NCBI GenBank assembly: GCA_964416435.1
Contig: CAYQEG010000008.1
Coordinates: 7,120-71,119 of the forward strand
Length of the DNA stretch: 64,000 nt
Source of the DNA: an uncultured Rickettsiales bacterium
Lineage (GTDB): Bacteria > Myxococcota_A > UBA796 > UBA9615
Direction of reading: 5' to 3'
Each line of letters begins with the position of its first letter. The first letter of the stretch is position 1. Positions 2,916 through 44,600 of this stretch are shown in pieces. A program made the position numbers and the translations under genes. The notes under the pieces were generated by a model, which saw only the letters and a list, made by a program, of their open reading frames with translations, searched no databases and was not told the origin of the DNA.

Positions 2916-5816
2916 CTACTGGCAGCGGCCCCCGGAGAGCCCGTAGAGCTTGCTCAGTTCGGGGGCCTTGGCCTGGAAGCCGAGGTCGTCGACGAACACC
3001 GTGATGGCGTAGCAGCCCGCGGCGCGGCCCTTGAACTTCGCGCCGATCGTGTACTTCTGGACCACGCCCTTGGACGGCAGCCCATCGCTGCCCTCGTAGA
3101 CGAACTGCAGCAGGCTGTCCCCCTTGACCGTCGCCGCGGACCAGCGGCCGGTGGCGCCTCCGTCAGCGCACTCGCCCTTGTCGCCCTTGGCCGGATCGAA
3201 CGTCGGGCGCATCGGCGCGTCACCGACCCGGGCGCGACCCTCGAGCTTGGCGCCCTCGGGGTTGGCGATCATCACGCAGATCTTGTGCTCGGTGCTGACC
3301 GAGGCCGCGACGGTGCCGGTCAGGCTGACCGCCACGACGAGCTTGCTCCCGGTGGGCGGCTGGACCTCGACGTAGACCCGGTCGCCGGACGCCTGGGCCT
3401 GCAGCGCCTCGACCACCGCCGGCTCGCGCATGAGGCTCGTCACGTGGCGGGTCAGGTCCGCGGTCACCCCGGCGTCGATCGGCAGCGTCGCGACGATGGC
3501 GCCGCGGCGGCTCTGCCGGAACCGGAGGGTCCAGGTGCCGTCGGTGCTGCTCCCGCCGGAGATCTCCAGGGGGTTGGCGAACGCGTTCCGACCGGTGTCG
3601 AACGTCGCCTGTTCCACCACCTTGCCCGAGTGCCAGCGCCAACTGCCGGCCGCCGGCGGGCTGGTCGTCCCCCCGCGATCGGGCGTCGGCTCCCCACCCG
3701 GCGCGAGGTTCTCGGGCTCCTCCTCCAGGGGCGTCGGGGCCACGATCCGCAGCGACTCCGAGCGGCGCAGGAAGCTCAGCTCGTCGTCGATGAACAGCTC
3801 CGCTCCCTGCGGCAGGATGATGATGTCCGCGTCGACGACCTCACCGGGGGCTCCCCACAGCCGGTCCCAGTTCCCGCCCTGACGCTGCACTGAGAAGGTG
3901 TACACCCCGTCGCCGCCCGAGCTGCGGTCGAGCCGCTGGCGCTTCAGCCCCTCCTCCGCGATGAGCCACACCTCGATCGGCTGGATGGTCGACTCGGCGT
4001 AGGCGTCCCTCTTCTGGAGCCGCAGGAGCGCCGCGGACTCCGACTCGGCGTCGGAGAACGGGACGCAGGCGATGCCCGGGTTCCAGCCCGCGCCGCAGCC
4101 GGTGAACGTGTAGGCGTAGGGCTCGCCCAGCGCGAGCACGTCGGCCCCCGGGCCGCCGTCCCCGCCCGACTGGGTGGGGTCAGCGTCCTGGCGCGCCTGG
4201 AGCATGTTGAGCACAGCCAACCCCGCCACCAGCGCGGCGAGGGCGGCGAGCAGGAGGCCGACCAGCACGAGGCCCCGGCGGTCGCTGGCGGGAGCCTCCT
4301 CGTCTTCCTCTTCCCCCTCCTCGGCCATCGCGCCCCAGTCGATTCCGGATCCGGTCCCCTCGGGCGCCGGCGCCGACGCCCGGGCCGGGGCCGGCATCGG
4401 CTCCTCGTCGTCGAACGTCTGGGCGAGCTCCTTCATGCGCGCCGACTGGGCCGACGTGCCGATCTGGGAGGGCGGCACGGGGCTCGGAGGCAGCAAGCAG
4501 GGCTCGCGCTCGACGGTGAACACCGGCTCCGCGATCGGTTCCCAGCGGTCGTTGGGGCGCAGCGACGGCGGGGCGATCGCCTGGAGCGACATGAGCGGCA
4601 CCGGCCGGCTCATCTTGTTCTGGGCGAACACCTGGAACAGCAGCGTGTCCTCTTCGATGCCCGGGTAGAGCACCAGCCCGACCTGGAACGGCACCTCGTC
4701 GAGGTCGTACCCGACCTCCCCGAGGAACAGCGCGATGCGGATGTTGTGCTCGACCGGGTCGTAGGTGTCCCCCTCGCTGAACCGGTGGGGGGAGACGATC
4801 CGGACGACCCCCAGGATCTTCTGCTCCCCGGTGGCGGGGAACGTGGCGGCCATGAAGCGCAGCGCGCCGACCAGGTCCTGGCGCTCCTTGTCGGGGTCTT
4901 CGCCCAGGTGGCCCAGGAACCGGACGCGCTTGATCGTGACGTGGTTGCCGGTCTTGGCGCCGAGCAGGACGCCGATCCGGTCCTGGTGCGTCTCGACGAC
5001 CGCGCTGGCCATACCTTCGAGGATGGAGGCGACCGGCCCCTCGGCGCGGTCCTGCCCCAACGTCAGCCAGTCCGGCGCCTCCTTGCGGACCATGCCGACC
5101 TGGTGCAGGACCGGCGTGTCGTCCTGGGCGTCGTCGTCGTCGCCGTCCCCTTCACCCTCCTCGACCCCCTCAGCCTCTACGACTTGAAACTTCCAGGGGA
5201 GCGCCGCCGTCACCTCCCTCCGGCTCTTGGCTCCGAAGAGGTGCAGCCCCGGGAGCAGCGGCGTACCCCCGCCCCGGTTGACGAAGTAGCCGACGGACGT
5301 GTCCGCAGTGCCCAGCTTGGGCGCGAGCACCAGGGCGAACTGGTAGGGCCGGTGGAAGTCGCGGTGGGTACGGAGGTCGTACCGGGACAGGAACACCGAC
5401 ATGTTGGGGTGGGTGTGGTACCAGCCCAGGAGCAGCAGCTCCTCTCCTGCTTCCTTGGAGAGGTTCTCCATCTGGTCGATGAGGTCGTCCCAGACGGAGT
5501 ACGTGAACTTGAAGTGCACCGGCGAGCTGTCTTCGTCGCGGGCGACCGCGATGTGGCTCACCTTGATGAGCGAGTTGTCCTCGCTGGTGGTGCCCAGGAG
5601 GATCCCGGCGACCTCCTTGTCGATCTGGATCGAGCGCTGGGACTCGAACTGGAGCCGGCGCGCGACCTCCCAATCGAGGTAGAGCGTGGGCATCTCCGCG
5701 TCGATGTTCTCTTCCGCGACAGCCCCGACATACAGCGTTTTCGCAGGCACGGCGAACCGGACCGACGAGTCGCCGGTCTCCTCTTCCATGAAGATCGGTT
5801 CATCCACCGAGGTCAT
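2916..5816 (-). CDS. membrane protein with N-terminal tandem MPN+/MPN- (JAMM metalloprotease) domains and large C-terminal extracytoplasmic Cys-containing domain
   Basis: Translation from MTSVDEPIFMEEE contains the JAMM motif E...HTHPNMSVFLSRYD (HxHx7Sx2D). A second MPN-like domain without HxH follows. Then one TM segment (GLVLVGLLLAALAALVAGLAVLNML) and about 500 aa of Cys-containing domain. The ORF-track N-terminal extension to 7838 is antisense to the FHA-SLT gene and was rejected. Start ATG at 5816. Confidence 0.8.
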   Translation of the reverse strand: MTSVDEPIFMEEETGDSSVRFAVPAKTLYVGAVAEENIDAEMPTLYLDWEVARRLQFESQRSIQIDKEVAGILLGTTSEDNSLIKVSHIAVARDEDSSPVHFKFTYSVWDDLIDQMENLSKEAGEELLLLGWYHTHPNMSVFLSRYDLRTHRDFHRPYQFALVLAPKLGTADTSVGYFVNRGGGTPLLPGLHLFGAKSRREVTAALPWKFQVVEAEGVEEGEGDGDDDDAQDDTPVLHQVGMVRKEAPDWLTLGQDRAEGPVASILEGMASAVVETHQDRIGVLLGAKTGNHVTIKRVRFLGHLGEDPDKERQDLVGALRFMAATFPATGEQKILGVVRIVSPHRFSEGDTYDPVEHNIRIALFLGEVGYDLDEVPFQVGLVLYPGIEEDTLLFQVFAQNKMSRPVPLMSLQAIAPPSLRPNDRWEPIAEPVFTVEREPCLLPPSPVPPSQIGTSAQSARMKELAQTFDDEEPMPAPARASAPAPEGTGSGIDWGAMAEEGEEEDEEAPASDRRGLVLVGLLLAALAALVAGLAVLNMLQARQDADPTQSGGDGGPGADVLALGEPYAYTFTGCGAGWNPGIACVPFSDAESESAALLRLQKRDAYAESTIQPIEVWLIAEEGLKRQRLDRSSGGDGVYTFSVQRQGGNWDRLWGAPGEVVDADIIILPQGAELFIDDELSFLRRSESLRIVAPTPLEEEPENLAPGGEPTPDRGGTTSPPAAGSWRWHSGKVVEQATFDTGRNAFANPLEISGGSSTDGTWTLRFRQSRRGAIVATLPIDAGVTADLTRHVTSLMREPAVVEALQAQASGDRVYVEVQPPTGSKLVVAVSLTGTVAASVSTEHKICVMIANPEGAKLEGRARVGDAPMRPTFDPAKGDKGECADGGATGRWSAATVKGDSLLQFVYEGSDGLPSKGVVQKYTIGAKFKGRAAGCYAITVFVDDLGFQAKAPELSKLYGLSGGRCQ

Positions 5817-10268: not shown

Positions 10269-10419
10269 GGGGCATCTCCCGCGCGGGTACGGAACAACGA
10301 ACCCGCTCCAGGAGTCCTATCGGCGGCCGCTCACCCGACTTGACCCGGGAGCCGCAGATGTCTACACCCTGGGCCGTCCGGGGGCGCCCGCACGCACACG
10401 CGAGGGAACGAATTTGGCC

Positions 10420-12125: not shown

Positions 12126-12135
12126 GGGCCGGGCC

Positions 12136-14808: not shown

Positions 14809-15650
14809 CGACGGGCCCGAGGCTTGGTGGGGGCGTCACCCCGGCGGTGGTCCGCTCCGTCGACCTGCACGAACTCGCACATCGAGCAGAGCCGGCTGTA
14901 GATCCGCTCCCCGATGCGCTCCACGAGCGACGGCATCTTGCTGCCGGCGGCGCCGGTCTTGCGGGAGTCGTAGCCGGGGTGATAGCCGCCGCCGTGGGAC
15001 GCCGCGGCGGTGTCGTGGGGGTCGAAGTTGGTGGTGCAGAGGGTGACCTTGCCGGCGTTGTAGCGGCGGCTCACCAGGTCATCGAGCACGGTCTCTTCCC
15101 ACTCGGTGCCCCGGCCCTTGCCGAGCTCGTCGATGACGAGCAGCTCGACGTCCACCAGGGGCATCATCAGGGCTGCGTCACCGCTGCCCGAGGAGAAGCT
15201 GCGCTTGAGGTCGGCGAGCAGGTTGCCGTAGTCGACGAAGCGGCAGCCGACCCCCTTGCGCAGCGTCAGCTCCCGGAAGATCGACACCGCGAGGTGCGTC
15301 TTGCCGGTGCCCACGGGGCCCCAGAACAGCAACCCCCGGTCGACCTTGGGGTAGCTCAGGGCGAACTCCTCGGCCCGGCGCTGGGCCATCTGCTGGGTCT
15401 TGGTGCGCGGCTTGAAGGAGCCGAGGGTGGCGCCCGCGAAGCGCTTGCCGATCTGCGCCTGGTTGAACATCTCGAGCCGCCGGCGGGCCTTGCGGCAGGG
15501 GCACGGGGCGAACACCTCGTACTCGCCGTCGAGGTGGTAGCGGCCTCCGGCGTCGTCACACTCGGGGCACCGCCAGTCCGGCGGATCGAACTCGGCCCGG
15601 CAGATGGCGCCGTCGGCGACGACGACGGGGGGCGGGGGGCGGAACGTCAC
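14805..15650 (-). CDS. DnaC/DnaI/IstB-like AAA+ helicase-loader ATPase with N-terminal zinc ribbon
   Basis: Walker A FWGPVGTGKTHLAVSIF, Walker B LLVIDELGKG. N-terminal CRAEF..CPEC..CPC zinc-binding region. GTG start at 15650 overlaps the upstream stop as GTGA, with GGAAGGA RBS. The ORF-track extension to 15851 was rejected. Confidence 0.7.
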   Translation of the reverse strand: MTFRPPPPVVVADGAICRAEFDPPDWRCPECDDAGGRYHLDGEYEVFAPCPCRKARRRLEMFNQAQIGKRFAGATLGSFKPRTKTQQMAQRRAEEFALSYPKVDRGLLFWGPVGTGKTHLAVSIFRELTLRKGVGCRFVDYGNLLADLKRSFSSGSGDAALMMPLVDVELLVIDELGKGRGTEWEETVLDDLVSRRYNAGKVTLCTTNFDPHDTAAASHGGGYHPGYDSRKTGAAGSKMPSLVERIGERIYSRLCSMCEFVQVDGADHRRGDAPTKPRARR

Positions 15651-16324
15651 GGGGCCAGTCCTTCCAGGCGATCGGGGTCGAGCACGGGGTCGTGCTCGCG
15701 CAGCCGCCGGCGCATCAGCTCGGCGACGGTCTGCTCCATCGCGTCGGGGTCCATCGCGTCGGCCGCCTCGCCCAGATCTGCGAGCACGGCGTCTCGCAGT
15801 GCGGACCGCTCGGCAACGGACAGCGCCCCGGCGCGATCGTCGTAGTAGCACCGGGAGGCCGCCAACAACAGGCAGAACGCCTCGTCTTCGTCGACCGACT
15901 CGGCCGCATCCTGCAGCGTCTGCCTCGCCCGCTCCAGGGCAGCGGCGCGGGCGCCCGTCGCCCCCTCCTGCGCGCCGAGCACGGAGGCGACGGCGAGGGC
16001 CAGCAGCCCCACCTCGGCCGGCGCCGGCTCGGTCGGCGACTCGCGGCTCCCCACCCCCCGCAGCCGCGCCCGCTCACCGGCCTTGGCGACGGCCGCCTTC
16101 ATCGACGACAGCGGCAGCCCCCGCGGCGGGTTCTTGCGCTTCTTGAGCTGCTCCCCCTTGCGCCGGAGCTCGGCGAGCACGGCGCCGAGGGGGTACCCGG
16201 CGTCGAACCACCGCTCGATCCAGTGCTGGTCCATGGGCGACAGGATGTGCCCCTCGTCCCGCAGATAGAGCACCAGCTCGGCGATCGCCGAGGCGTAGCG
16301 GTCGAGTCCGTCCAGCGCATCCAT
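15647..16324 (-). CDS. hypothetical protein translationally coupled to the DnaC/DnaI-like gene (possible loader partner)
   Basis: 225 aa. Its stop is fused to the downstream start as GTGA. High GC3. No clear motif. A DnaD/DnaB-like role is a guess from context only. Confidence 0.5.
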   Translation of the reverse strand: MDALDGLDRYASAIAELVLYLRDEGHILSPMDQHWIERWFDAGYPLGAVLAELRRKGEQLKKRKNPPRGLPLSSMKAAVAKAGERARLRGVGSRESPTEPAPAEVGLLALAVASVLGAQEGATGARAAALERARQTLQDAAESVDEDEAFCLLLAASRCYYDDRAGALSVAERSALRDAVLADLGEAADAMDPDAMEQTVAELMRRRLREHDPVLDPDRLEGLAP

Positions 16325-16449: not shown

Positions 16450-17466
16450 ATGCTCCGCCTCCTGCTCCTGCTCCTCGCCTCCCTCCTCGCCTTCCCCGCG
16501 GCGGCCCTCGCCCAGGACGACGACGACTTCGAGGAGGACGAGGACTTCGAGGAAGAGCCGGGCGACGACCGGGACACGTACGAAGCCTTCAAGAAGGACA
16601 TCAAGGGTGAGTCGGCGGCCGAGGAGATCGACGCCTGGTACCGCTACCTGGACGCCTACCCCGACTCCCAGTTCCGGCTGGAGATCGAGGGCCGGATCGA
16701 AGCGCTGGAGGAGGCGGCCTTCGAGGAGCTGATGCGCGAGCGGAGCGACTCGGACGCGGACGACGGCCGGACCGACGCCAAGCGGGCCGAGATGGACGTG
16801 CTGGAGCCGGCCCTGATCGGCATGAGCGCCAACACGCGGCGGCGCTTCGAGTTCGGCCTGCTGTGGGGCTTCGCCGACTACATCAACTACGACCTGACGT
16901 TCGAGTGGGCGTTCGCCCGCAAGTTCAGCGTCTTCGGCGGCGTGCGGCACGAGGGCCGCGCCTTCGGCGGCACCTTCCAGGCCGGCGCCAAGTACGCCCT
17001 GGTCAAGGACGTGCGCACCGGCGTGGTGCTGACCGGGGCGGTGTCGGTCAAGGTCGGCTACAGCAGCCTGGATCGCCTCAGCTTCATCGTGGAGCCGTGG
17101 GTCGGCTTCGCGTGGCTACCGTCGGACCGGTTCCAGCTGCAGACGAGCCTGGCGATGGACATCCGCCTGGACCGGCTCCGCACGTGGGTCGTCTGGGACA
17201 TCATGGCCGTCGTGCGGCCCACCGACGTGGTCGGCATCTACATCGAGAGCAAGCAGAAGCACTCGCTGCAGGGCATCGACGGCCTCGGCACCCAGTACCT
17301 GGCCTTCTACCAGGCGGGCGCTGGCGTGAAGGTCAAGCCCGCCCCCCTCATCGAGCTGACCGTCGGCGCGAACGTGCCGTACTTCTGGCGGCTGTGGAAG
17401 GACTACCAGTACTTCGGCGTGCACGCCGACGTGGTCTTCCACTTCGCGAGCAAGCCGAAGCGGTAG
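16450..17466 (+). CDS. secreted protein with signal peptide and acidic N-terminal stretch
   Basis: MLRLLLLLLASLLAFPAAALAQ signal, then DDDDFEEDEDFEEEPGDD. Rest is rich in alternating aromatic/hydrophobic residues (possible beta-rich fold). Confidence 0.6.
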   Translation: MLRLLLLLLASLLAFPAAALAQDDDDFEEDEDFEEEPGDDRDTYEAFKKDIKGESAAEEIDAWYRYLDAYPDSQFRLEIEGRIEALEEAAFEELMRERSDSDADDGRTDAKRAEMDVLEPALIGMSANTRRRFEFGLLWGFADYINYDLTFEWAFARKFSVFGGVRHEGRAFGGTFQAGAKYALVKDVRTGVVLTGAVSVKVGYSSLDRLSFIVEPWVGFAWLPSDRFQLQTSLAMDIRLDRLRTWVVWDIMAVVRPTDVVGIYIESKQKHSLQGIDGLGTQYLAFYQAGAGVKVKPAPLIELTVGANVPYFWRLWKDYQYFGVHADVVFHFASKPKR

Positions 17467-17503
17467 GAAGCGGCGGCAACCCCGGGGCTCGGCCCCCGCG
17501 GCG

Positions 17504-18109
17504 CTACTCCATCTCGAAGGCCATGCCTCCGTCGTCGTAGTAGTACTTCCGGAACGAGTCGATCTCGTCGGGGTGGTTGTACGCCCAGCCGGCCGCGTCC
17601 GGGTTCAGGTAGTCGCCGATCTCGACCCGACGGTAGAAGTCGTCGGGGTTCTCGTGGATGTCCTGCCAGGAGAGCACGCCCAGGAGCATGTCGGCGATGT
17701 CCGCGAGGTGCACCTCGAGCGTGTAGGTGCTGTCGTTGACGTAGCAGACGAACCCGTCCTTGGGGCTGATGTTGGGGTGCCAGACGTCGGAGACCGCGTA
17801 GATCTCGGGCTTGACCACCGGGTACGCCTCGGACAGGTAGATGTCGAAGCTGACCGTGTCCTTGATCGGGAAGTGGGCCAGCGGGAAGCCCTTGAGCTGG
17901 AACTTGCCCGAGGGGCGGCCCAGCGTCGGCTTGGTGAAGGTGTAGCGGTACTTGTACGGCAGGGCCTCTTCGCCCCACGTGAAGTCGAGTGGCTCCACCG
18001 CCACCACGGACTGCTCCACCATGAAGTTCTGCAGGATGTCCCACTCCGTCTGGAGCCGGCCCATCACGAACTTCGCGTCGCCCGACGGCTTGGTCTTCCC
18101 TCCGGCCAT
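17504..18109 (-). CDS. UBC-fold E2-like ubiquitin-conjugating enzyme homolog
   Basis: N-terminal helix RLQTEWDILQ, then canonical E2 active site VWHPNISPKDGFVCY (HPN + catalytic Cys) in UBC-like spacing. Last gene of the baseplate-E1 operon. Confidence 0.8.
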   Translation of the reverse strand: MAGGKTKPSGDAKFVMGRLQTEWDILQNFMVEQSVVAVEPLDFTWGEEALPYKYRYTFTKPTLGRPSGKFQLKGFPLAHFPIKDTVSFDIYLSEAYPVVKPEIYAVSDVWHPNISPKDGFVCYVNDSTYTLEVHLADIADMLLGVLSWQDIHENPDDFYRRVEIGDYLNPDAAGWAYNHPDEIDSFRKYYYDDGGMAFEME

Positions 18110-18128
18110 GACCTGTCTCCTGGTCCCG

Positions 18129-18422
18129 CTAGGCGGGGATGTGCTCCATCACGAGGCGGATCTCGTCGCCCTCTTCCACCCCGGCGTCGCCGAGCGACTC
18201 GTTGGGCTGGAGGATGTAGTGCTTGCGACCGCCGCTGCGACGATCGGGCACGGAGATCTTGAACGAGCGGGGATTCCCCTGCTCGTCGGTCATGTTCATC
18301 TTCAGGTTGCGAGCCAGAAACGGCGCCAGCTTGCTCGCAGGCACGTCGCTGCTGATCTTGACCGTTCGATTCGTTCCGCCGGTGGGCTCCTTGAGCCGCA
18401 CCTTCACCACATTGTCGCTCAT
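18129..18422 (-). CDS. small beta-grasp (ubiquitin-like) protein lacking C-terminal Gly-Gly
   Basis: 97 aa. VKVRLKEPTGG..RTVKISSDV..ASKLAPFLARNL..SFKISV..EGDEIRLV fits a beta-grasp pattern. Ends ..MEHIPA. Sits between the membrane zinc-ribbon gene and the E2. Confidence 0.55.
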   Translation of the reverse strand: MSDNVVKVRLKEPTGGTNRTVKISSDVPASKLAPFLARNLKMNMTDEQGNPRSFKISVPDRRSGGRKHYILQPNESLGDAGVEEGDEIRLVMEHIPA

Positions 18423-18541
18423 CCTGATCCTCCGCCGCCGCCAGAGGCCCTCTTGTCCAGAGGGAAGCAGGCCGCGGGATCGCCCGATAGGGCGCTGATC
18501 CTATACCACACAGCCGGCTCGTCGGCCCCTGACCACCGCCG

Positions 18542-19216
18542 CTAGCGCCGTCCCATTCCCTTGAGATCACGCTCCCGAAGCTGCTGGTAGCAGCGCCGGC
18601 AGCGCCCATCGAGCAGGTGCACGTAGTCCTTGAGATAGACCGCGTGACACACCGAAGTGATGTTCAGCCGGTTGTGGCAGACCACGTACTGGTCGTGCTC
18701 TCGGTTGACGACCTGGTTGGTCAGCAGACAGACCAGGTCCTCCGGCTCCGTGGAGTAGTCGATGTCCTCCTCTTCGGACTCCTGCAGGTCCTCGTCCTCG
18801 TCGATGTCTTCCTGCTCGGTCTGCACGTAGTGCTTCAGGCTCAGCGCGCCGAGCAGGGCGCCGAACACGCCGCCCACCAGGCCCAGCGCGAGCGGCAGCA
18901 CGTCCAGCTTGAAGTCACCCTCCCCCGGCACCGTCACCATGCCGGTGACCGTAGCGAGCCCGAACATCACCGCGAACACGACCGTGCCGATCGCGAAGGT
19001 CAGGAACATCCCGCCCATCTGGCGGCCCAGCAGCATCCGCACCGACGCCGACGACAGCGCGCCGATCGCCAGCGGGGGCGCCAGCGCCAGCCCGATCCAG
19101 GGGGTCCCGTCCCGGTACTGCACCACGCCCCAGGCGATGGTGAACAGCACGAGCACGAACAACGTGGGCAGGACGTCGCCGATGCTGCCCATGCCCTCTT
19201 CGTCGGACTTAGCCAC
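18542..19216 (-). CDS. 4-TM membrane protein with acidic linker and C-terminal Cys/His zinc-ribbon-like domain
   Basis: Four hydrophobic helices. DEDEDLQESEEEDIDYS linker. C-terminal C..CHNR..CH..C..C cluster. Overlaps the E1 gene stop by 8 nt. Confidence 0.6.
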   Translation of the reverse strand: MAKSDEEGMGSIGDVLPTLFVLVLFTIAWGVVQYRDGTPWIGLALAPPLAIGALSSASVRMLLGRQMGGMFLTFAIGTVVFAVMFGLATVTGMVTVPGEGDFKLDVLPLALGLVGGVFGALLGALSLKHYVQTEQEDIDEDEDLQESEEEDIDYSTEPEDLVCLLTNQVVNREHDQYVVCHNRLNITSVCHAVYLKDYVHLLDGRCRRCYQQLRERDLKGMGRR

Positions 19217-20564
19217 CCATCACCTCTGCTTCATCGCCCGTCAGCTCGACCGCGACGCGCCCCTTGCCCCCGTACAGCAGGAAGATCTGCAGCTTCGGGA
19301 AGCCCAGTTCGCTCAACGGCCGGTCGATCAGCTTCTTGTCGAACACCCGCAGCGCCCGCTTGTAGTCGGGACGCGCTTCATTGTCGCAGTTGCGACAGGA
19401 GAGGTCCAAGTCGCGGGACCGCTGAGGCTTGAAGTACTCCTCGCGGTGGCCGCACTGGTGGCAGTACAGCTCCGTCACCAGGTCGTAGCCGATGCGCAGC
19501 GACACCTTGTTGACGTCGACCTCGAGCAGCTCGGCGCCTTTCTCGAGCAGCTGGCGCAGCGTGGTGCCGTCCGCCGTGAACTCCGGGACCTCCGCCACCT
19601 CGCCCCAGTGGTCGTGCCCCTCGCAGCCGTCGGTCCGGTTGCGGACCTGGGCCTCGAGGTAGGGCGAGCCGCCGCCGAAGTAGTACTGCACGCCGTGGGG
19701 CATCTCGAGCTGCGCGGGGGGCTCGTCCATGTGGACGTCGTGCAGCAGCTTGAGCGCCTCCTGGGCCATCATCGCGCCGCTCATCGCCGCCGCCAGCGGC
19801 GACGTCGGCTGACGCTGCATCTCGCGGATCGCCTCCGCGAGCGGAGCGCAGGACGGCGCGTACGGCAGGTGCTGCTGGTAGCGCATCGCCGCGTCCATCG
19901 TGCACTCGAAGCAGGCGCCCCCCGGCGGATCCCAGCAGGTCACGCGCCAGCTCAGCTCGCCGATGCCGGCGTCCAGCCAGGGCTTGCCCAGCGCCGCCGC
20001 GATCCGGTTGAAGCCGACCCGGGCGTCGATGCTGTCGACAACGCTGCAGAGCACGTCCATGCGCCGGAACACGCCCATGCCGATCTCGAACCGCACGTCC
20101 GCCGACATCGGACGCAGGTCCAGGTCGGGATCCATGTCCGCGAGCCGCTCCGCCGCCACCTCGACCTTCGCGCGGCCGATGTCCCGCGGGCGGAACAGGA
20201 CCGACTTGGCGAGGTTGCTGCGGTCGATGTCGTCGAAGTCGGCGAACCACAGGTGGCCCACGCCGAGCAGCGTCAGGTTCTTGAGCACCTCGTTGCCGAG
20301 GGCGCCCGCGCCGGCGCAGAAGACCCGCCCGTTGCGCACGATGTCCTCGCGGAAGTGCGCCATCAGCTTGTAGATCGCGAACCGGTCGGAGCTGTCGTAC
20401 TCCATGCGGCGACGCTGACGTTCGCCGAACGTCATGTCGGCGACGCCGTCCTCGTCCACCGACAGGTCGGCGAGGGGGTCGTCCTCGTCGGGGAGCTCGT
20501 TGCCGTCCTCGTCGTACGCGACGATGAAGACCTCGACCTCCTCTTCGTTCTCGGGCGTGCTCAC
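19209..20564 (-). CDS. E1-like (ThiF/MoeB/HesA family) adenylating enzyme with C-terminal zinc ribbon and Gly-Gly terminus
   Basis: Rossmann motif VFCAGAGALGNEVLKNL, then ..FADFDDIDRSNLAKS. CFEC and CHQC..CRNC Cys pairs. Final residues ..LTGDEAEVMGG. Confidence 0.85.
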   Translation of the reverse strand: MSTPENEEEVEVFIVAYDEDGNELPDEDDPLADLSVDEDGVADMTFGERQRRRMEYDSSDRFAIYKLMAHFREDIVRNGRVFCAGAGALGNEVLKNLTLLGVGHLWFADFDDIDRSNLAKSVLFRPRDIGRAKVEVAAERLADMDPDLDLRPMSADVRFEIGMGVFRRMDVLCSVVDSIDARVGFNRIAAALGKPWLDAGIGELSWRVTCWDPPGGACFECTMDAAMRYQQHLPYAPSCAPLAEAIREMQRQPTSPLAAAMSGAMMAQEALKLLHDVHMDEPPAQLEMPHGVQYYFGGGSPYLEAQVRNRTDGCEGHDHWGEVAEVPEFTADGTTLRQLLEKGAELLEVDVNKVSLRIGYDLVTELYCHQCGHREEYFKPQRSRDLDLSCRNCDNEARPDYKRALRVFDKKLIDRPLSELGFPKLQIFLLYGGKGRVAVELTGDEAEVMGG

Positions 20565-20573
20565 CGGTCTCTC

Positions 20574-21533
20574 CTACTCGGCGTCCAGCTCCTCGTAGTA
20601 GATGCCGCGGATGTTCTCACGGTCCTTGCCGGCGGCCTTGATGACGCCCTGGAGCGCCTTGCTCATCCAGTTGAGCCGCAGGTCGAACTTGTCCGACTTC
20701 GGGCGGTTCTCCTGGATCTTCTTGACCGCCTGCCAGCTGGTCTTGAAGTGCGGGAACAGCCCCTTGCGCACGCCCTCCTTGCGGAGCCCCACCAGGAAGC
20801 GCTGCTCGCGCTCCATCAGGCGGGTGAACATGTCGCAGAGCGCCTCCTCGCTGACGCCGGCGCTCAGCAGGTTCGCCTCGGTGCCGATCAGCGTCTGCAG
20901 GAACAGGTGCGCCCGCACGTCGGCGACCGGCTTCTGCTCGACCAGGTAGGCCTTCATCGTCAGCTCGATCGACGCGTCGACGTACTCGCTGAGCTGGCGG
21001 CGCAGGTTGCCCAGGTCCTCCGGCTCGGGACGACGGGCGAGCTGCACGTAGCGCAGGTCGACGCCGCCGGTGACCTTCTGGCCGTCGGCGACCCGGATCC
21101 GGCCGATCTCGACGCCCGCCCGGATCTCCTTGTCGTTGAAGGAGATCTCGAACGACTCGACCGTGCGGGTCTCCTGCCGTTCGGTGCTGTTGTAGGCCTG
21201 ACGCTTGCTGTCGGAGTCGTCGAACTCCTTGTACGTCAGGAAGATCATGTACTTGCCGGGGGTGTCCGGCACCGGCGCCGAGCGCGCCCCCTCGGGCACC
21301 ACCACGTCGTTGCCGTTGGGGTCGATGGCGTACCCCTCGGTCACCTCGATGCAGTCGCCCTGGGCCGTCTGCACGACGTCCGGCTTGAGCCCGAACACCA
21401 CCCCCGAGCCCGCGACGAACTGGTTGCTCAGCCGCCGCTTCCACAGGAAGTAGGACTGCTCGTCCCGCAGGTCGACGTCCGACAGGCACATCCCCTCGAA
21501 GGGGCGGAGCCGCTTGTTTTGAATCGCTTCCAT
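20574..21533 (-). CDS. hypothetical protein in baseplate operon (319 aa)
   Basis: Between the P2-I-like gene and the E1 gene with 9-16 nt gaps. No recognised motif. Possibly a wedge/fiber-attachment component by position. Confidence 0.5.
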   Translation of the reverse strand: MEAIQNKRLRPFEGMCLSDVDLRDEQSYFLWKRRLSNQFVAGSGVVFGLKPDVVQTAQGDCIEVTEGYAIDPNGNDVVVPEGARSAPVPDTPGKYMIFLTYKEFDDSDSKRQAYNSTERQETRTVESFEISFNDKEIRAGVEIGRIRVADGQKVTGGVDLRYVQLARRPEPEDLGNLRRQLSEYVDASIELTMKAYLVEQKPVADVRAHLFLQTLIGTEANLLSAGVSEEALCDMFTRLMEREQRFLVGLRKEGVRKGLFPHFKTSWQAVKKIQENRPKSDKFDLRLNWMSKALQGVIKAAGKDRENIRGIYYEELDAE

Positions 21534-21549
21534 CAGGTTCCCCGTTCGC

Positions 21550-22602
21550 TCAGGCCAGCAGCACGGCTCGGCCGAGCGCCGCGTTCGGGCTGAGCTGCGC
21601 CGGATCGCACAGCACCAGTCCGTTGTGAATCACTTCTTCGTCCTTGAAGCAGATCACGAAGTCCAGGTGGGCCGGACGCTCGTTCTGCGCGACGCGCGCT
21701 ACGCGCTCGAGCAGCTCGGCGAGCCGGTCCCGGTACCGGGAGACCAGGGCCTCCCGGTCGTCCAGGACGATCGTGAAGTACTCCTCCCGCGAGAAACGCG
21801 GAGAGGTCAGCAGGTGCTCCCCTGCGTGGGTCACGTACGGCAGCGATCCGAGGGCCTTCTCGTCCTCGTCGTCGATCTCGCCGTCCTCCGTCGGAGGCCG
21901 TGACAGCGCGCAGTTGCCCAGCTCCATCGGCTGGGGGCCACGCCGGAGCACGATGTGCGTGTCCAGCCCGGTCAGCGTCTTGATCATCTCCGAGAGGCCG
22001 CGGGTCGTGCCGCGCCACCGGAACAGCTCGGTCGCCCGGCGCAGGAAGATGCGTCGGCGGGTGACCGGGATGCGCTCGTCGAGCGTGAAGTCCAGCCACG
22101 ACGCGAGCCACGGCAGGAACTTCGGGTCCATCTTGACCGGGTCGACGATCGCCGACCGGTCGGCCACCGCCGAGTCGGTCCGGTGGGCGAGCGTCTGGAA
22201 CACCAGCAGGTAGCGCCGAAGGAACTCCGCCTGGCCGACGCCGGCGCCGCCCTCGCGCTGGATGCCGCGGCTGTACAGCTGCGGCAGGTACTGCCCGTAG
22301 CCGGACGTGGCGACCAGCAGGCTCACCCGGTCGCGGGCCTCCAGCTGGGCGTAGTGCACCGCCTGGCCTTCCCGCTCGAAGCGGACCTCCCCCGTCTCGG
22401 GGGCGAGCTTGAGGATCGTCGGCGCGGTCAGCCCGCGGGGCCGGATCTTGACCCCGATGACCCGCCCTTCGAGGAGCCGTCGGACCTCCGGCACGTACTC
22501 GACGTCGCACTGGTTGCCCAGCGCGTGACGCACGATCGCCACCCCGGCCTGCGCGGGCAGGCCTTCGCGGAGGATCCGCTCCAGGGTGGCGAGCTGCTGC
22601 AT
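21550..22602 (-). CDS. phage tail protein I-like (gp7-like baseplate wedge) protein, tentative
   Basis: Directly abuts the Baseplate_J gene (stop/start adjacent). Size and position match P2 gpI/Afp12-like genes. Assignment rests on synteny rather than strong motifs. Confidence 0.45.
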   Translation of the reverse strand: MQQLATLERILREGLPAQAGVAIVRHALGNQCDVEYVPEVRRLLEGRVIGVKIRPRGLTAPTILKLAPETGEVRFEREGQAVHYAQLEARDRVSLLVATSGYGQYLPQLYSRGIQREGGAGVGQAEFLRRYLLVFQTLAHRTDSAVADRSAIVDPVKMDPKFLPWLASWLDFTLDERIPVTRRRIFLRRATELFRWRGTTRGLSEMIKTLTGLDTHIVLRRGPQPMELGNCALSRPPTEDGEIDDEDEKALGSLPYVTHAGEHLLTSPRFSREEYFTIVLDDREALVSRYRDRLAELLERVARVAQNERPAHLDFVICFKDEEVIHNGLVLCDPAQLSPNAALGRAVLLA

Positions 22603-25600
22603 CTAGTCGCTGTCCAGGTCCACGGCGCACTCGGGCCGCTCGCGGGTTCCGGCGAGCACGAACAGCTGTCCGGGTCGACCGTGACGCGGGAGGTCTCGGA
22701 CGTAGCCGGCCGGTGCACCCGGAGGCGGCGCCCGCATCACGCGGCACTCTTCGACGTGCCGGATCTCCGGGATCTCCTTGAGGATGTGCTGCAGGTCCTG
22801 CGCCCGCGGCACCTCGCCGAAGGGCCAGCCGGCGCCGTCGACGCCGCCGGTGAACGGATCCAGGAACCGCGCGATCCAGGCCTCCGCCCGCTCACGCACG
22901 CCCGAGGGGTTCGTGCGCGGGATGAGCAGGCAGCGCATGTCGACCGTCACCGGCACGAGCTGCGCCATCTGCACCCGCACCTCGGTGTTGATCAGCGCCC
23001 GCTCCTGCACGTACTCCTGCACGACGCGGAGCAGGCCGATCTCCTCGGCGTCGGGGATCTCGCCCGTCTTCTGGTCGCGCTTGGGCAGCACCGTCAGCCG
23101 CACCACCCACGGGTCGTCGCCCGGGTCCTTGTAGGCGTGGCAGCGCGCCAGGGTGCCCGACGCCTCCTTGGCGATGACCTCGAAGTCCTCGGTGGTCACC
23201 GCGCGGGTGCGCCCGGTCAGGGCCTTGGGGGCCCGCTTGATCAGGTCGTCGATCGACTCGACGTCCCGCCCGCCGGTGGACGCGAACGGGTTGCTCACGC
23301 GGACCTGGGAGCCGTACGTCGGGCACACCGCGATGGTCGTCGCCGGCACGTTGCCGGCCGACCCGTCGGTGGTGAAGTAGTGACCCACGACCAGGTTGTG
23401 GGTGCCCGCCTTCGGGATCGCGCCGTGCACGCCGTCCCCGAACCGGACCACCCCGCGGACCGGGTCCACCGCGTAGACGCGGTCGTTGCGATCGGCGTCG
23501 CGCAGGTCGTCGTCCAGGCTGAACTCCCAGATCCTCTGGGAGTCACCCTCGCTGACGTCCACCTCGACGAACGACTCCTTGTGGAGGTCCTCCGGAAGCG
23601 ACGCCAGCAGGTCGGCCGACGGAACCACCGCCGGCTGGTGCAGCAGCTGCACCTCCTGGTTGGGGATGCCGTAGGCGCTGAACTTCTCCAGCTCGCGCCG
23701 CTGCAGGTTGCTCACCTCGGCCGCGTTGAGCAGGACGTGGGTCAGCCGCGGGTAGCGGATGGGTCCCCAGGTGCCGTCAGCCCGCTTGACCGCGTCCGGC
23801 AGCTTGCACCGCAGCCAGCGCACGTTGCCGCCGCGCCCCTCGCCTCGCGCCGGGATCACGACGCGCAGGAAGCCCGAGCCGCGGAAGTCGAACGTCGTCG
23901 GGAGCGACCGCAGCTGCAGCCAGCGCTCACCGTCCAGGTACTCCCAGGTCGCGTTGCGCTCCGCCCCCTTGAGCGGCTCACCGGTCATCCGGAAGTAGAT
24001 CGACACCTCCTCGCCCACCGGCAGCGGCCGGTCGACGCACAGGTAGATCGAGCGCCCGGAGCGGTTGGTCTCCACCGGAGCGATCCAGGGGAAGCGCGTC
24101 GCCTTCTTGGAGGTCAGCGAGCGGCTGACGAGCGGGCGGATCGAGGTGAACCGCGGGTTGTTGCGGTTCAGGTTGACCCCGAGGGCCTCGAAGTCGTGCA
24201 GGACGTGGCGGTACCAGTCCTCGCCCTCGACGACCTTCTTGCGGCGCTTGCCGCCGCCCCGGTGCTGGATCCGGATGCCGAAGATCTGGGGGTGGTAGTG
24301 CAGGTCGCGCTTCACGAAGATCCCGGTCGCGCCCGGGGTCTTCGGCTTCGCCCCCTTCTTGGTCTCCTCAGGCGGCGCCTCGCGCGTCTCACCGACGTTG
24401 ACCTCGACCTGGTCGGTCAGGTCGCAGTTCACCAGCACCAGCCGCAGCCAGTACGTCTCGGTGCCCTGGAGCGCCACCTGGGCGATCCCCTTGAACTGCT
24501 TGGCCGGCTGCAGGCTCATGCGCACCGTGAAGAACTGGTCCTCCTCGCTGAACGATGGCTGCATGTGGGAGAAGCAGAACTCGGTGAACGCCTTGCCCTC
24601 GTCGTCCTCGAGCTTGACGTCACGCCAGCGGGACTTGGCGCGGTACTGCAGCTTGAAGCTGTACCGGTCGAGGTCGTCCTCGAGTCCCCACTCGCCCGCG
24701 CGCGGGAACTTGTAGTTCTTGAAGAAGTAGCTGAACTCGACGCCGATGCGCTCGACCGTGTCCTCGAACACGTCGGCGCCCAGGTACAGCGCGTGGTTCT
24801 CCGCCGGGGCGATGCTGAACTCGCTGTTGGAGTACGGCTCGACCGGCGGGCTCTCCAGGCTGGTCCGCTCCAGCCGGTTGATGTCCGGCCCCTTGAGCAG
24901 GTCGACGCGGATCTGCCGCTCCAGCGACACCACCAGCTCGCCTTCGTCGGTCAGCGCGGCGATGTCGACGGCGCGGATGCGGGTCGTCTGGAAGCGGGCC
25001 GGGGTGGCGCAGTCGGCGGGCAGCGGCCCGTGGATCCAGGCGTCGAGGCCGCGGATCTGCAGGTTGCGCTCGGGCAGCTCGGCCCAGCGGCCGTCCTCTG
25101 TGAAGTAGAACCACTGCTGGCCCGGCACGTAGGTCGGCGCGACGCGCAGCGACAGGCGCGGGAAGCGGATGATGAACGCTTCCTTGCGGCCGGGGCGGAT
25201 CGGCTCGCTGAACCGGAACTCCATGGTGTTCGGCCCGGTGGCCGAGACCAGCAGCTCCATCGGGTGGCTGTCGCCGCGGCGGGGGCGGAAGCGGCCCTTG
25301 GGGTGCTCGCGGATCAGCTCCAGGTAGTACTTCTCGAACTCCAGCGCGCCGCGGACCCAGTACTTCGCCAGGTTGCGGCCGCCGTCGGTGACCAGCTCGG
25401 TCTCCTTGTCGTCCCAGTCGGCGATGGGGGCCTGCGGCTCCAGGCCCGCCGCGAGCAGGTTGCGGCTGTCCGGCCAGGCGACCCACTCGTCTCCCACCCG
25501 GTGCTCCCAGCGGAAGAACTTCTGCAGGTCGAACAGCTTCCCCTGCTCGTTCCCCTTGAGCTCCACGTGCAGCGTCACCTGGTCGTCGGTGTGCAGCCGC

Positions 25601-26226
25601 TCGATCAGGTTGTGACCCAGGTACAGGAACTGGTCGTAGATGTTGGCGGACAGGTTGTTCCGGTCGGGATCCGGCTCCAGCAGCGGCACGCCGGCCGTCT
25701 CCCCCGCCGCCTCGCCCAGCTCGTAGACCGGGGGATGCTCGGGGTCGTCGTCGATGATCCGCTCGATCGCCAGGACCTCGCGGTTGTCCTCGGACTCGCC
25801 CTCGATCTTCAGGCCGATGATCCGCTCCAGGCGGGGCCCGCAGACCGTCAGGTCACGCACGGTGATGAAGCGGACCTCGTCGACGTCCTCGGTCTGCTGG
25901 GTCGCCACCTCGGTCAGCTTGGGCACCCGCACCGGTCCCGAGGAGTCGTTGATCTTCTGGAACGAGACCAACGTCGAGCTGGGCAGGGCCGAGCCCTGGC
26001 GCTCGCCGATGAAGTTGAGGAAGTGGATGTAGGTCGCGTCGGGGACGCGGTTGAGCCGGTAGATGACCATCTCGGTCATCCACGCGAACAGCTGGACCAG
26101 GGTGATGCCCGGGTCTGAGTCGTTGAAGTTGGTCCACTCGGGGCAGTAGACCGGGATCAGCTGCTTGGCGCGTTCGACGATCTCGGCGTAGCTGAGGTCG
26201 TCCAGGTTGGGCGCATCAATCGGCAC
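22603..26226 (-). CDS. Baseplate_J (P2 gpJ / T4 gp6-like) baseplate wedge protein, extended 1207 aa
   Basis: N-terminal signature ..YAEIVERAKQLIPVYCPEWTNFNDSDPGITLVQLFAWMTEMVIYRLNRVPD is characteristic of the Baseplate_J family in P2-like phages, Afp and PVC-type contractile systems. Overlaps the gp25 gene by 11 nt. Confidence 0.85.
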   Translation of the reverse strand: MPIDAPNLDDLSYAEIVERAKQLIPVYCPEWTNFNDSDPGITLVQLFAWMTEMVIYRLNRVPDATYIHFLNFIGERQGSALPSSTLVSFQKINDSSGPVRVPKLTEVATQQTEDVDEVRFITVRDLTVCGPRLERIIGLKIEGESEDNREVLAIERIIDDDPEHPPVYELGEAAGETAGVPLLEPDPDRNNLSANIYDQFLYLGHNLIERLHTDDQVTLHVELKGNEQGKLFDLQKFFRWEHRVGDEWVAWPDSRNLLAAGLEPQAPIADWDDKETELVTDGGRNLAKYWVRGALEFEKYYLELIREHPKGRFRPRRGDSHPMELLVSATGPNTMEFRFSEPIRPGRKEAFIIRFPRLSLRVAPTYVPGQQWFYFTEDGRWAELPERNLQIRGLDAWIHGPLPADCATPARFQTTRIRAVDIAALTDEGELVVSLERQIRVDLLKGPDINRLERTSLESPPVEPYSNSEFSIAPAENHALYLGADVFEDTVERIGVEFSYFFKNYKFPRAGEWGLEDDLDRYSFKLQYRAKSRWRDVKLEDDEGKAFTEFCFSHMQPSFSEEDQFFTVRMSLQPAKQFKGIAQVALQGTETYWLRLVLVNCDLTDQVEVNVGETREAPPEETKKGAKPKTPGATGIFVKRDLHYHPQIFGIRIQHRGGGKRRKKVVEGEDWYRHVLHDFEALGVNLNRNNPRFTSIRPLVSRSLTSKKATRFPWIAPVETNRSGRSIYLCVDRPLPVGEEVSIYFRMTGEPLKGAERNATWEYLDGERWLQLRSLPTTFDFRGSGFLRVVIPARGEGRGGNVRWLRCKLPDAVKRADGTWGPIRYPRLTHVLLNAAEVSNLQRRELEKFSAYGIPNQEVQLLHQPAVVPSADLLASLPEDLHKESFVEVDVSEGDSQRIWEFSLDDDLRDADRNDRVYAVDPVRGVVRFGDGVHGAIPKAGTHNLVVGHYFTTDGSAGNVPATTIAVCPTYGSQVRVSNPFASTGGRDVESIDDLIKRAPKALTGRTRAVTTEDFEVIAKEASGTLARCHAYKDPGDDPWVVRLTVLPKRDQKTGEIPDAEEIGLLRVVQEYVQERALINTEVRVQMAQLVPVTVDMRCLLIPRTNPSGVRERAEAWIARFLDPFTGGVDGAGWPFGEVPRAQDLQHILKEIPEIRHVEECRVMRAPPPGAPAGYVRDLPRHGRPGQLFVLAGTRERPECAVDLDSD

Positions 26227-26623
26227 CGATGAACTCCTGCAGCTGGACCAGGTGGACCAGGTTCTGGTGGTTGTTCGACTTGCGGACCGTGTAGCCGATG
26301 TGGAGGCGAATCTGGTTCGGGTTGTCCCGATCCGGCCTGGCGACCACTTCGTCGACGTCGATCCGCGGCTCCCACTTGGCCAGCGCCGCCCGAACCATCG
26401 ATTCGGACTGGTGACGCGTGCCGGCGGAGTTGGTGGAGAAGATCAGGTCCTGCAACGGACAGCCGAACTCGGGGAGCATCTGCCGCTCGCCCGGCTGGGT
26501 GTTGAGGATGATGTGGATGCACTCCGCGATGTTCCGCTCGTACTCGGACAGGTAGACACCACCCCCGTCGTCACGCGGACGAACAGGAAACGACCACCCT
26601 CGGCCGAGGTACTCGCGACTCAC
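26216..26623 (-). CDS. GPW/gp25-like baseplate wedge protein
   Basis: MSREYLGRGWSFPVRP..SEYERNIAECIHIILNTQPGERQMLPEFGCPLQDLIF is the gp25/GPW family signature. Confidence 0.85.
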   Translation of the reverse strand: MSREYLGRGWSFPVRPRDDGGGVYLSEYERNIAECIHIILNTQPGERQMLPEFGCPLQDLIFSTNSAGTRHQSESMVRAALAKWEPRIDVDEVVARPDRDNPNQIRLHIGYTVRKSNNHQNLVHLVQLQEFIGAD

Positions 26624-26889
26624 AGACCCCCTCCATTCGAGGCCCTATTTGGCCCCTCGCCCGTCCAGGACTCGGGGTGATTCAGCGGATGCAACCGATG
26701 GAGCGGATGGGGGTCCGTCCAGGACCCCCAGGTGCTGTTCCGGCGTCGCCGGTCGAGCGCCCCTCCGTCCTCCCCCGCGCACGGGGATGGGGATTCTCCG
26801 TCATGCGGCCATCGGGTGCAAGCCGACCGAAGCGACCGCTGAGTGGCACAGGGCGTGCAAGCCCCGCAGGCACAGGTCAGGGAGCCCCG
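26624..26889. promoter_or_regulatory. divergent promoter region between baseplate-Ubl operon and hemerythrin-like gene
   Basis: 266-bp gap between the first gene of the minus-strand operon (gp25) and the plus-strand hemerythrin-like gene. Confidence 0.3.
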
Positions 26890-27312
26890 ATGCACATCAA
26901 CTCGACCAGTCCCCCGAGCGAAGAGCGCTCCGCCCGAGAGCGGATCGCAGCCGACCACCGCGAGGTGCTGGGCTTGCTCAAGCAGCTGGAGACCCACACC
27001 CAGCCGTCCGGGATTCGGGAGATCGCCTACGAGTTGACCACCCTGCTCGACCGCCACTTCAAGGACGAAGAAGGCGTGTACGGCGTATTCGCCCAGATCG
27101 AAGAGGCCCGGCCGGACCTGCAGGGGCAGGTCTCCCGCCTGCGGGATCAACACCGGGCGATCGAGGAGTTGATCGGCACCATCCGCTTCGACGACGACGC
27201 CCACGCGCTCAGCGATCGGGACCGCGTCGTGCAGATGATCCGTGAACACGAGGCGGCTGAGACCGAGCTGCTCACCGAGGCCATCTACGAAGACCTGGGC
27301 GTCGGCGACTGA
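26890..27312 (+). CDS. hemerythrin-like (HHE cation-binding) domain protein
   Basis: MHINSTSPP.. preceded by RBS GGGAG. Four H/E-containing helices (DHREVLGLL, LDRHFKDEE, LRDQHRAIEEL, REHEAAETELL) typical of the hemerythrin HHE domain. The ORF-track start at 26677 was rejected. Confidence 0.6.
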   Translation: MHINSTSPPSEERSARERIAADHREVLGLLKQLETHTQPSGIREIAYELTTLLDRHFKDEEGVYGVFAQIEEARPDLQGQVSRLRDQHRAIEELIGTIRFDDDAHALSDRDRVVQMIREHEAAETELLTEAIYEDLGVGD

Positions 27313-33871: not shown

Positions 33872-33880
33872 GAGCGCAGC

Positions 33881-44571: not shown

Positions 44572-44600
44572 CGACAGCTCCTCGGTGGGCGGGCGCCGGC

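Follow-up and report, generated by a model that had tools for sequence, protein, structure and literature searches.

The 64,000-nucleotide stretch of DNA analysed here, referred to as the window, derives from contig CAYQEG010000008.1 of an uncultured Rickettsiales bacterium (Myxococcota_A in the GTDB lineage). At 17504–26623 it carries a block of eight genes which we consider probably to be the wedge operon of a marine Myxococcota contractile injection system (CIS), encoding Cis9, Cis11, Cis12 and Cis13, combined with a four-gene ubiquitin-like protein (Ubl) conjugation module that elaborates a CIS accessory. Gene order and homology lead us to conclude that the Ubl module is likely to belong to the CIS, and that one marine clade appears to have freed the Ubl and gained a eukaryote-like activating enzyme (E1) and conjugating enzyme (E2). 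Taken alone, the CIS genes represent a known and ordinary type of system; the novelty lies in their combination with the Ubl module.

Gene content of the block

A preceding sequence-only reading of the window had reported eight closely spaced, co-directional genes on the minus strand. The coordinates confirm this layout, with intergenic distances of -11, 0, 16, 9, -8, 119 and 19 nt in the order from gp25 to E2 (Table 1), and the GC content at third codon positions (GC3) of all eight open reading frames (ORFs) amounts to 0.86–0.98, the bias expected of real genes; the genome has ~70% GC. The first three products are recognized as CIS wedge proteins, and the fourth resembles one. The gp25-like protein matches its Pfam model with E 1.3e-27, in addition to a TssE-like NCBIfam model. 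The Cis11 candidate agrees with Baseplate_J (E 1.4e-13) and, above the cutoff, with TIGR02243 (E 2e-75); 907 homologues were found, and among the matches listed most are 1150–1210 aa long. The third protein is detected by Tail_P2_I (E 2.7e-7), by tail_TIGR02242 above the cutoff and by CIS12_fam (E 5e-17). The fourth gene, which had been left as unknown, is Cis13-like, as the N-terminal 140 aa of its 319-aa product match CIS13_fam with E 5e-13, albeit at 49 bits and thus below the cutoff of 370. Nearly all related CIS loci, even the ones that lack E1 and E2, have a homologue at this position after the P2_I gene.

The remaining genes comprise a complete set for Ubl conjugation and a transmembrane (TM) protein carrying a Cys/His finger (TM-finger protein). 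The E1 matches Pfam ThiF with E 1.1e-39 and, in the PDB, the active adenylation domains of UBA7, Uba1, SAE2 and UBA3 (E 4e-24 to 1e-16), followed by ThiF (2e-15) and MoeB (5e-11). Its conserved features include a CxxC motif, followed after 14 residues by an invariant Cys in the segment PYAPSCAPL, and a second CxxC...CxxC pair. The Cys of PYAPSCAPL, which we take to lie at the position of the crossover-loop Cys of ThiF/MoeB, is a candidate for the catalytic residue. The E2 scores just below the UQ_con cutoff (25.0 bits versus 27, E 1.5e-5), and its sequence aligns with Ube2K of the PDB over YP..KP......WHPNIS...G.VC, a segment spanning HPN...C, of which H111, P112, N113 and C122 are invariant in 27 homologues. 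The AlphaFold model of the E2 (pLDDT 80.4) found 263 PDB chains in Foldseek at E<=1e-3; among the matches listed all are eukaryotic E2s with a probability of 1.00, headed by UbcH5A, Ube2K and Ubc13. The family itself is narrow. A word-indexed search returned only 27 clusters, all at least 73% identical. When 1.84 billion representatives are grouped at 50% identity, the family falls into one cluster, with the next matches at E ~1e-5. The members all originate from marine metagenomes or from metagenome-assembled genomes (MAGs) of Myxococcota/'Deltaproteobacteria', e.g. UBA6601, and no relatives were found in IMG/VR viral contigs. Judged from these motifs and the predicted fold, E1 and E2 look catalytically competent.

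The Ubl marginally exceeds the cutoff of the YukD model (27.4 versus 27.0 bits, E 5.8e-6) and finds no sequence match in the PDB at E<=10. Its gene is the most conserved of the locus (86–99% identical, dN/dS 0.00–0.03), and the C-terminus ...RLVMEHIPA, invariant in 20 distinct sequences, ends in Ala without an extension that would need processing. Conjugation via a C-terminal Ala has a precedent in the cGAS of the type II cyclic oligonucleotide-based antiphage signalling system (CBASS; PMC10097602). The sole sizeable gap of the block, 119 nt at 18423–18541, is situated just upstream of the Ubl gene. This gap ahead of the most conserved gene may allow a separate or boosted expression of the Ubl; no promoter-like or terminator-like site was detected in it. 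A promoter and terminator scan of the whole block likewise remained at background level, and a sigma-70-like promoter was found neither in 26624–26890 nor anywhere in 17300–27300.

A sulfur-carrier pair of the MoeB/ThiF–MoaD/ThiS type was considered for E1 and Ubl and rejected because the three calls are sound, as judged from the matches to eukaryotic E1s, the UBC fold with HPN and Cys of a genuine E2, and the Ala tail of a Ubl devoid of Gly-Gly. Furthermore, the ThiF and MoeB models of NCBIfam all score far below their cutoffs, and no thiamine or molybdenum cofactor genes are located nearby. The earlier assignment of E1, E2 and Ubl thus stands.

Table 1. Coordinates of the block genes and of associated features; L-numbers are handles for compared loci, other positions refer to the window
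Feature	Position	Strand	Basis
Cis9/gp25-like baseplate wedge protein, 135 aa	26216..26623	-	Pfam GPW_gp25; NCBIfam TssE-like
Cis11/Baseplate_J-like wedge protein, enlarged form, 1207 aa	22603..26226	-	Pfam Baseplate_J; NCBIfam TIGR02243
Cis12/Tail_P2_I-like wedge protein, 350 aa	21550..22602	-	Pfam Tail_P2_I; NCBIfam tail_TIGR02242, CIS12_fam
Cis13-like CIS protein, 319 aa	20574..21533	-	NCBIfam CIS13_fam; conserved position
E1-like activating enzyme, ThiF-type, 451 aa	19209..20564	-	Pfam ThiF; PDB eukaryotic E1s
4-TM protein with acidic linker and C-terminal Cys/His finger, 224 aa; candidate membrane-bound E3 or anchor	18542..19216	-	AlphaFold, hhalign
Free YukD-like Ubl, 97 aa, C-terminus ...RLVMEHIPA	18129..18422	-	Pfam YukD
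E2 conjugating enzyme, UBC fold, 201 aa	17504..18109	-	Pfam UQ_con, Foldseek
Divergent intergenic region gp25/hemerythrin; presumed promoter region of the block, role inferred	26624..26890	.	coordinates
966-aa membrane protein, N-terminal JAB/MPN+ domain; candidate deconjugase	2916..5816	-	Pfam JAB E 1.1e-14
Fusion ORF, example	L023:15636-16610; equivalents in 51 other loci (L024-L090)		
Recurrent Ser/Thr kinase, cNMP-binding or T2SSE-ATPase genes	L023:19055-21616; L028:20964-21977; L115:7687-9324; L012:17963-19799		

A Ubl-TM-RING-like fusion family in distant CIS loci

The protein encoded between E1 and Ubl had been described as a 4-TM zinc-ribbon protein. The four TM helices are supported by the AlphaFold model (pLDDT 81.8; helices 12–33, 41–63, 70–95 and 106–130), whereas the supposed zinc ribbon is more probably a diverged finger of the RING/PHD type, according to its hhalign relationship with a fusion protein of distant CIS loci. 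Invariant residues of the TM-finger protein include C163, C180, H181, C190, H191, C206 and C209.

The fusion family emerged from a scan of the GTDB species genomes with a Baseplate_J alignment, which yielded 80 loci, nine in the clade of the window and 71 distant ones. The distant Myxococcota CIS clade has a Baseplate_J protein ~30% identical to that of the window and shares with the clade of the window a core consisting of sheath, tube, a 120-aa protein, LysM-tube, gpD, gp25, Baseplate_J, P2_I and Cis13; E1 or E2 was found in none of the 71 loci by tblastn and HMM searches. Instead, 52 of the 58 loci having enough downstream sequence contain an ORF of 300–324 aa, mostly within ~300 nt of Cis13 and in a few loci 1–5 kb away or on the other strand, which combines an N-terminal YukD-like beta-grasp domain, ~4 TM helices and a C-terminal C4HC3 RING/PHD-like finger. 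All 45 members scanned match Pfam YukD in their N-terminal domain (best E 2e-9). The finger is detected by zf-RING_2 in 27, by a PHD-like model in 18 and by PHD in 12 of the 45, with all finger matches being weak; its pattern C-x2-C-x10-11-C-x3-C-x4-H-x2-C-x14-C-x2-C is invariant in 49 sequences. Presumably, this spacing corresponds to the C4HC3 PHD/RING-variant signature.

Both the TM-finger protein and the free Ubl can be related to this fusion. Profile comparison of the TM-finger family (59 sequences) with the fusion gave an hhalign probability of 96.9% and E 2e-10 over 180 columns extending from TM1 to the last CxxC, such that residues 14–213 of the TM-finger protein correspond to residues 123–323 of the fusion. 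The fusion HMM matches the TM-finger ORF of the window at E 1.2e-7, and the reverse HMM matches 17 distant loci. For the free Ubl family and the N-terminal fusion domain the similarity is weaker (78.7%, E 1.7e-5). In the alignment, the finger of the window retains C1, C3, H5, C7 and C8 of the fusion finger. These relationships suggest that Ubl and TM-finger are long-standing accessories of this CIS family and that protein tagging may control the machine, and they argue strongly against a chance adjacency and a cargo role. They also place the previously noticed link between tail-like genes and a Ubl system, which is real, on a better foundation than before.

Since the number of TM helices is even, the Ubl domain and the finger of the fusion are both expected to reside in the cytoplasm. 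In analogy to EccD/YukD of the type VII secretion system (T7SS), such a topology might suit a membrane dock for a cytoplasmically assembled baseplate. The membrane adaptors of other CIS offer a second analogy. The fusion is widespread while the distribution of E1/E2 is narrow and isolated, and we therefore favour fission plus gain of E1 and E2 rather than an initial fusion event. The ancestral accessory would have been one inner-membrane protein with a cytoplasmic Ubl, ~4 TM helices and a cytoplasmic finger; in the clade of the window this fusion gene would be represented by two genes, TM-finger and free Ubl, with E1 and E2 added. The E1 would adenylate the invariant C-terminal Ala of the Ubl and hand the Ubl to Cys122 of the E2, the membrane-bound finger domain serving as E3 or docking site. 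At the membrane, the Ubl might then become covalently linked to the TM-finger protein, whereby the ancestral fusion would be restored post-translationally; alternative targets would be baseplate proteins docked on the TM-finger protein or, conceivably, lipid. Anchoring, assembly or firing of the CIS could become switchable in this way, with a fixed fusion converted into a regulated and possibly reversible link. That the CIS is controlled by Ubl tagging, that the loci preserve the series from fused to free Ubl and that the linkage is perhaps reversible by a JAB protease is a tentative proposal, which we hold to be possible rather than probable.

The JAB/MPN+ protein in question has an intact JAMM motif E...HTHPNMSVFLSRYD (E...HxHx7Sx2D), one TM helix, a second MPN-like region and a large C-terminal part. 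In L001/L002 and L109 the JAB gene is positioned 8–10 kb beyond E2, a synteny shared by unrelated housekeeping genes. Its possible function as Ubl deconjugase is therefore only a lead.

In the clusters of extracellular CIS (eCIS), such as the Afp/PVC loci, effector genes usually occupy the 3' end, and this position was counted in favour of a cargo island, from which E1, Ubl and E2 would be injected into eukaryotic prey to subvert ubiquitin signalling. The unusually eukaryote-like character of E1 and E2 and the acidic, probably disordered 60 N-terminal residues of the E1 would be compatible with such a role. However, a 4-TM membrane protein is encoded within the module, the start of its gene sharing 8 nt with the end of the E1 gene. 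Ubl and TM protein derive from, or share homology with, a protein that is integral to the membrane of the producer cell, and the module persists in loci without an adjacent CIS. The cargo explanation, which we consider very unlikely, was rejected.

Trunk genes, split loci and selection

In relatives with a 66–74% identical Baseplate_J protein the block from gp25 to E2 directly follows a full CIS trunk (L004, L006-L010, L015-L019, L021, L102-L105). The trunk, which precedes the block in most contigs of the E2 family, starts with two Phage_base_V genes; these are followed by a sheath of 558 aa, three gp19 tubes, the 120-aa protein, a second sheath of 487 aa, another tube, CIS_tube+LysM and Phage_GPD. 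The distance between gpD and gp25 is 141–198 nt in ~10 contig groups and 1.7–2.9 kb in L015 and L016. In L012/L013, 9.3 kb of housekeeping genes are placed between the trunk end and gp25, L012 being the closest lineage carrying trunk genes (85% identical). In the window and in L112/L113, hemerythrin and korAB are found at the gpD|gp25 boundary instead of the trunk; their position upstream of gp25 had already been noted and is confirmed. An adjoining cluster of sheath, tube and spike genes is thus present in the sister lineages and absent from this window, for which the earlier statement of their absence also holds: when a relative's sheath, tube, LysM-tube, gpD and spike proteins were used as tblastn queries, no match was obtained anywhere in the 64 kb, of which 37 kb lie upstream and 17 kb downstream of the block.

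Breaks at the gpD|gp25 boundary recur in the clade, as also documented by the 9.3-kb insertion of L012, and the CIS locus has therefore most likely been split, with one half in the window. An assembly artefact does not account for the junction, because the same arrangement of korA, hemerythrin and gp25...E2 recurs in an independent, 100% identical JGI contig (L011) and in a second lineage (L112/L113) with 93% amino acid identity of Baseplate_J. Between the window and L112, at dS values of 0.27–0.59 (0.27–0.44 for the wedge genes), dN/dS amounts to 0.10 for gp25, 0.11 for Baseplate_J, 0.12 for P2_I and 0.08 for Cis13, and to 0.12 for E1, 0.16 for TM-finger, 0.03 for Ubl and 0.22 for E2. The wedge genes are therefore kept by purifying selection despite the lack of an adjacent trunk gene, and an unlinked trunk locus becomes the simplest reading. 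Most probably, the genome carries its sheath, tube and spike genes at another site. The same values bear on the explanation of the wedge genes as a decaying remnant of a lost CIS that is no longer functional. The long trunk-free span on either side of the block and the variable break-up of the locus across the clade would agree with decay, but the four wedge ORFs are full length and, with dN/dS of 0.08–0.12 between two lineages sharing the split arrangement, constrained. We considered this explanation and rejected it as scarcely credible.

A more serious competitor is a membrane-associated Ubl system of E1, TM-finger, Ubl and E2, perhaps with the JAB/MPN+ protease, which acts on cellular substrates independently of the CIS and is merely its neighbour. 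It would account for the constancy of the other flank, where the outer-membrane-like protein, IstB-like ATPase, ABC transporter, PilZ and JAB genes keep their synteny in every lineage and the CIS side varies. Chance is, however, hard to invoke for the homology of the TM-finger protein with a protein which 52 distant CIS loci encode beside Cis13 or a few kb away from it. Moreover, the free Ubl is weakly similar to the N-terminal domain of the fusion protein, and the gap between Cis13 and E1, on the same strand, measures 13–225 nt in ~18 distinct contig groups. We regard an independent neighbour as unlikely, if not negligibly so.

Several observations nevertheless weigh against the assignment of the Ubl module to the CIS and should be read together. 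The link between CIS and module is drawn from gene order and homology only. Unrelated genes of 4.8–6.7 kb part Cis13 from E1 in L012 and L094, and L001-L003 and L099 possess E1, TM-finger, Ubl and E2 without a CIS gene in the 6–7 kb upstream; between L001 and L099 the module is under strong purifying selection (dN/dS 0.01–0.07) without an adjacent CIS. According to these loci, the module needs no CIS adjacency and may not need a CIS at all, in line with an independent neighbour. An intermediate CIS locus (L115, Baseplate_J 36% identical) contains neither the fusion gene nor the E1-TM-Ubl-E2 module. The finger of the window has lost C2, C4 and C6 of the eight canonical ligands, though H181 and C190 are invariant; taken alone it shows no significant similarity to the fusion finger, it has no Pfam or PDB match, and fold searches of the model were uninformative. 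A C-terminal Gly or Gly-Gly is absent from all 20 distinct Ubl sequences, and the trunk genes of this genome were not found in the 64-kb window.

Two further features of the compared loci are mentioned here. In L001 (6038-7249) and L099 (~6087-7256) a 403-aa protein, 72% identical between both, precedes E1 on the same strand; it is unrelated to Cis13 or other CIS proteins and has no Pfam match. Genes for Ser/Thr kinases, cNMP-binding proteins or T2SSE ATPases recur beside CIS loci or inside the splitting insertions and may act as regulators.

Relation to known systems and implications

The CIS genes of the window and its relatives correspond to those of Afp, PVC, AlgoCIS and the Streptomyces CIS in the order of gp25, Baseplate_J, P2_I and the Cis13-like gene, and the relatives also exhibit the sheath, tube, LysM tube-initiator, gpD and spike genes in canonical order. 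They differ in the Baseplate_J protein of ~1200 aa and, in the window, in a trunk unlinked to the wedge genes. A report of 2025 describes eCIS-like clusters, whose tube gene is highly expressed, in marine Myxococcota MAGs (PMC11937823). The group of uncultured hosts is the same, and several of our loci share the MAG naming pattern (DS_MAG, XS_MAG, XB_MAG). That report mentions no Ubl, RING, E1 or E2 component, the word 'ubiquitin' occurring 0 times, nor does the main text of a large eCIS survey (PMC8213781).

Among bacterial conjugation cascades, Bil (BilABCD) and Bub likewise consist of E1, E2 and Ubl, and Bil provides a precedent for tail-like structures as Ubl substrates because it targets a phage tail protein. 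A Bil-like anti-phage defence, with the tail or baseplate proteins of an incoming phage as Ubl targets and the host wedge proteins in the role of sensor or decoy, would be in keeping with the homology of the wedge proteins to phage baseplate proteins and with a window lacking sheath and tube. The sister lineages, however, have the block at the 3' end of a complete CIS, and the stand-alone sensor or decoy cassette proposed in the sequence-only reading is therefore not supported. In addition, the flanks are of housekeeping type, and the block is part of a chromosomal CIS locus and not of a defence island; a JAB gene is missing inside the module and no deubiquitinase or peptidase gene is adjacent, unlike in Bil; and Ubl and TM-finger are conserved CIS accessories also in loci without E1/E2. 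PADLOC gave no match for BilA, BilB or BilC and nothing for Ubl or E2; the E1 received a partial BilD match of 23.8 bits over 60 residues, which reflects generic E1 similarity. Further weak 'E1-E2' matches of the E1 in PADLOC are taken by us, from the model names, to be Cap2-type models. None of the eight proteins matches DUF6527 or another Pfam family of Bub (6E/DUF6527). We consider a Bil-like defence quite unlikely. Type II CBASS with Cap2/Cap3 resembles the locus in E1/E2-type conjugation via a C-terminal Gly or Ala (PMC10097602) and differs by its CD-NTase, which is missing here; moreover, E1 and E2 of the window are separate and the modifier is a beta-grasp Ubl. By its gene content, the locus is not a member of Bil, Bub or CBASS.

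Burroughs, Iyer and Aravind reportedly predicted in 2011 prokaryotic systems of RING, E1, E2 and JAB proteins which may conjugate YukD-like Ubls. In the full-text literature, a coverage outside of which Burroughs et al. 2011 falls, no description of a link between CIS and ubiquitin-like or ThiF proteins was found. The operons of E1, E2, small RING protein and ubiquitin in Caldiarchaeum, Asgard archaea and sporadic bacteria (PMC5654768) share with the module a separate E1, a UBC-fold E2 with HPN motif, a finger protein, a small Ubl and a nearby JAB/MPN+ protease, although JAB is here 10 kb away. In contrast to these operons, the Ubl of the window is YukD-like, ends in Ala instead of Gly-Gly and has no pro-peptide, the finger protein is integral to the membrane and its ligand set degenerate, close relatives of the E2 family are confined to the clade, and the module is situated in a CIS locus. 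YukD/EccD of the T7SS (PMC1779556) illustrate that a YukD-family domain occurs likewise either free or fused N-terminally to a polytopic membrane protein. The membrane part in our case, however, comprises ~4 TM helices and a RING/PHD-like finger rather than 11–12 TM helices, it is associated with CIS and not T7SS, and the free Ubl is accompanied by E1 and E2, whereas no conjugation is known for YukD. A Ubl within a tail assembly gene cluster is also found in Lambda/T1 phages as TAPI, together with TAPK (JAB + NlpC/P60) (PMC1779556). TAPI differs in being ThiS/MoaD-like with a conserved C-terminal Gly and in having a peptidase partner instead of E1/E2, and the respective tails are non-contractile.

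The surroundings of the block in the window are of housekeeping character and consist of hemerythrin, korAB, Rnf and multihaem cytochrome genes beyond gp25, and of genes for an outer-membrane-like protein, an IstB/DnaC-like ATPase, HmuY, a GldAFG-like ABC set, PilZ and SLT beyond E2. The IstB/DnaC-like AAA ATPase (14805-15851, minus strand) resembles an IS21 helper; since it occupies the same position in all related genomes, it does not represent a mobile element in this case. At 9414-13710 a tandem PilZ-domain protein stands beside an ABC ATPase, an ABC-2 permease and an ABC_transp_aux protein, a set which presumably resembles GldA/GldF/GldG. Between 43303 and 60709, genes for multihaem c-type cytochromes are densely clustered; these proteins have MtrC/MtrF-like domains and may as a set serve extracellular electron transfer; one of them (43303-44622) contains collagen triple-helix repeats and another (57677-60709) is fused to a cytochrome b561-like membrane domain. 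Gene calls are uncertain at 1-2000 and 30233-38076, where the GC content reaches 0.76–0.81 and very long ORFs overlap on both strands; the 1212-aa ORF at 30233-33871 has a C-terminal ferredoxin as its sole match.

CIS are being engineered as protein-delivery devices. The Ubl-TM-RING-like protein encoded beside the baseplate genes, of which no description was found, points to a membrane docking or regulatory factor. The clade that added E1 and E2 would provide the first Ubl conjugation tied to a CIS rather than to phage defence or sulfur transfer and, if the proposal of tagging is true, the first case of a Ubl modification that controls how a phage-tail-like nanomachine is assembled, anchored or fired. 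With regard to the evolution of ubiquitin systems, the loci would offer a testable pair at homologous positions, with a fused, non-conjugated YukD-like Ubl on the one hand and, on the other, a free Ubl accompanied by E1, an E2 of the HPN type and a partner related to RING proteins.

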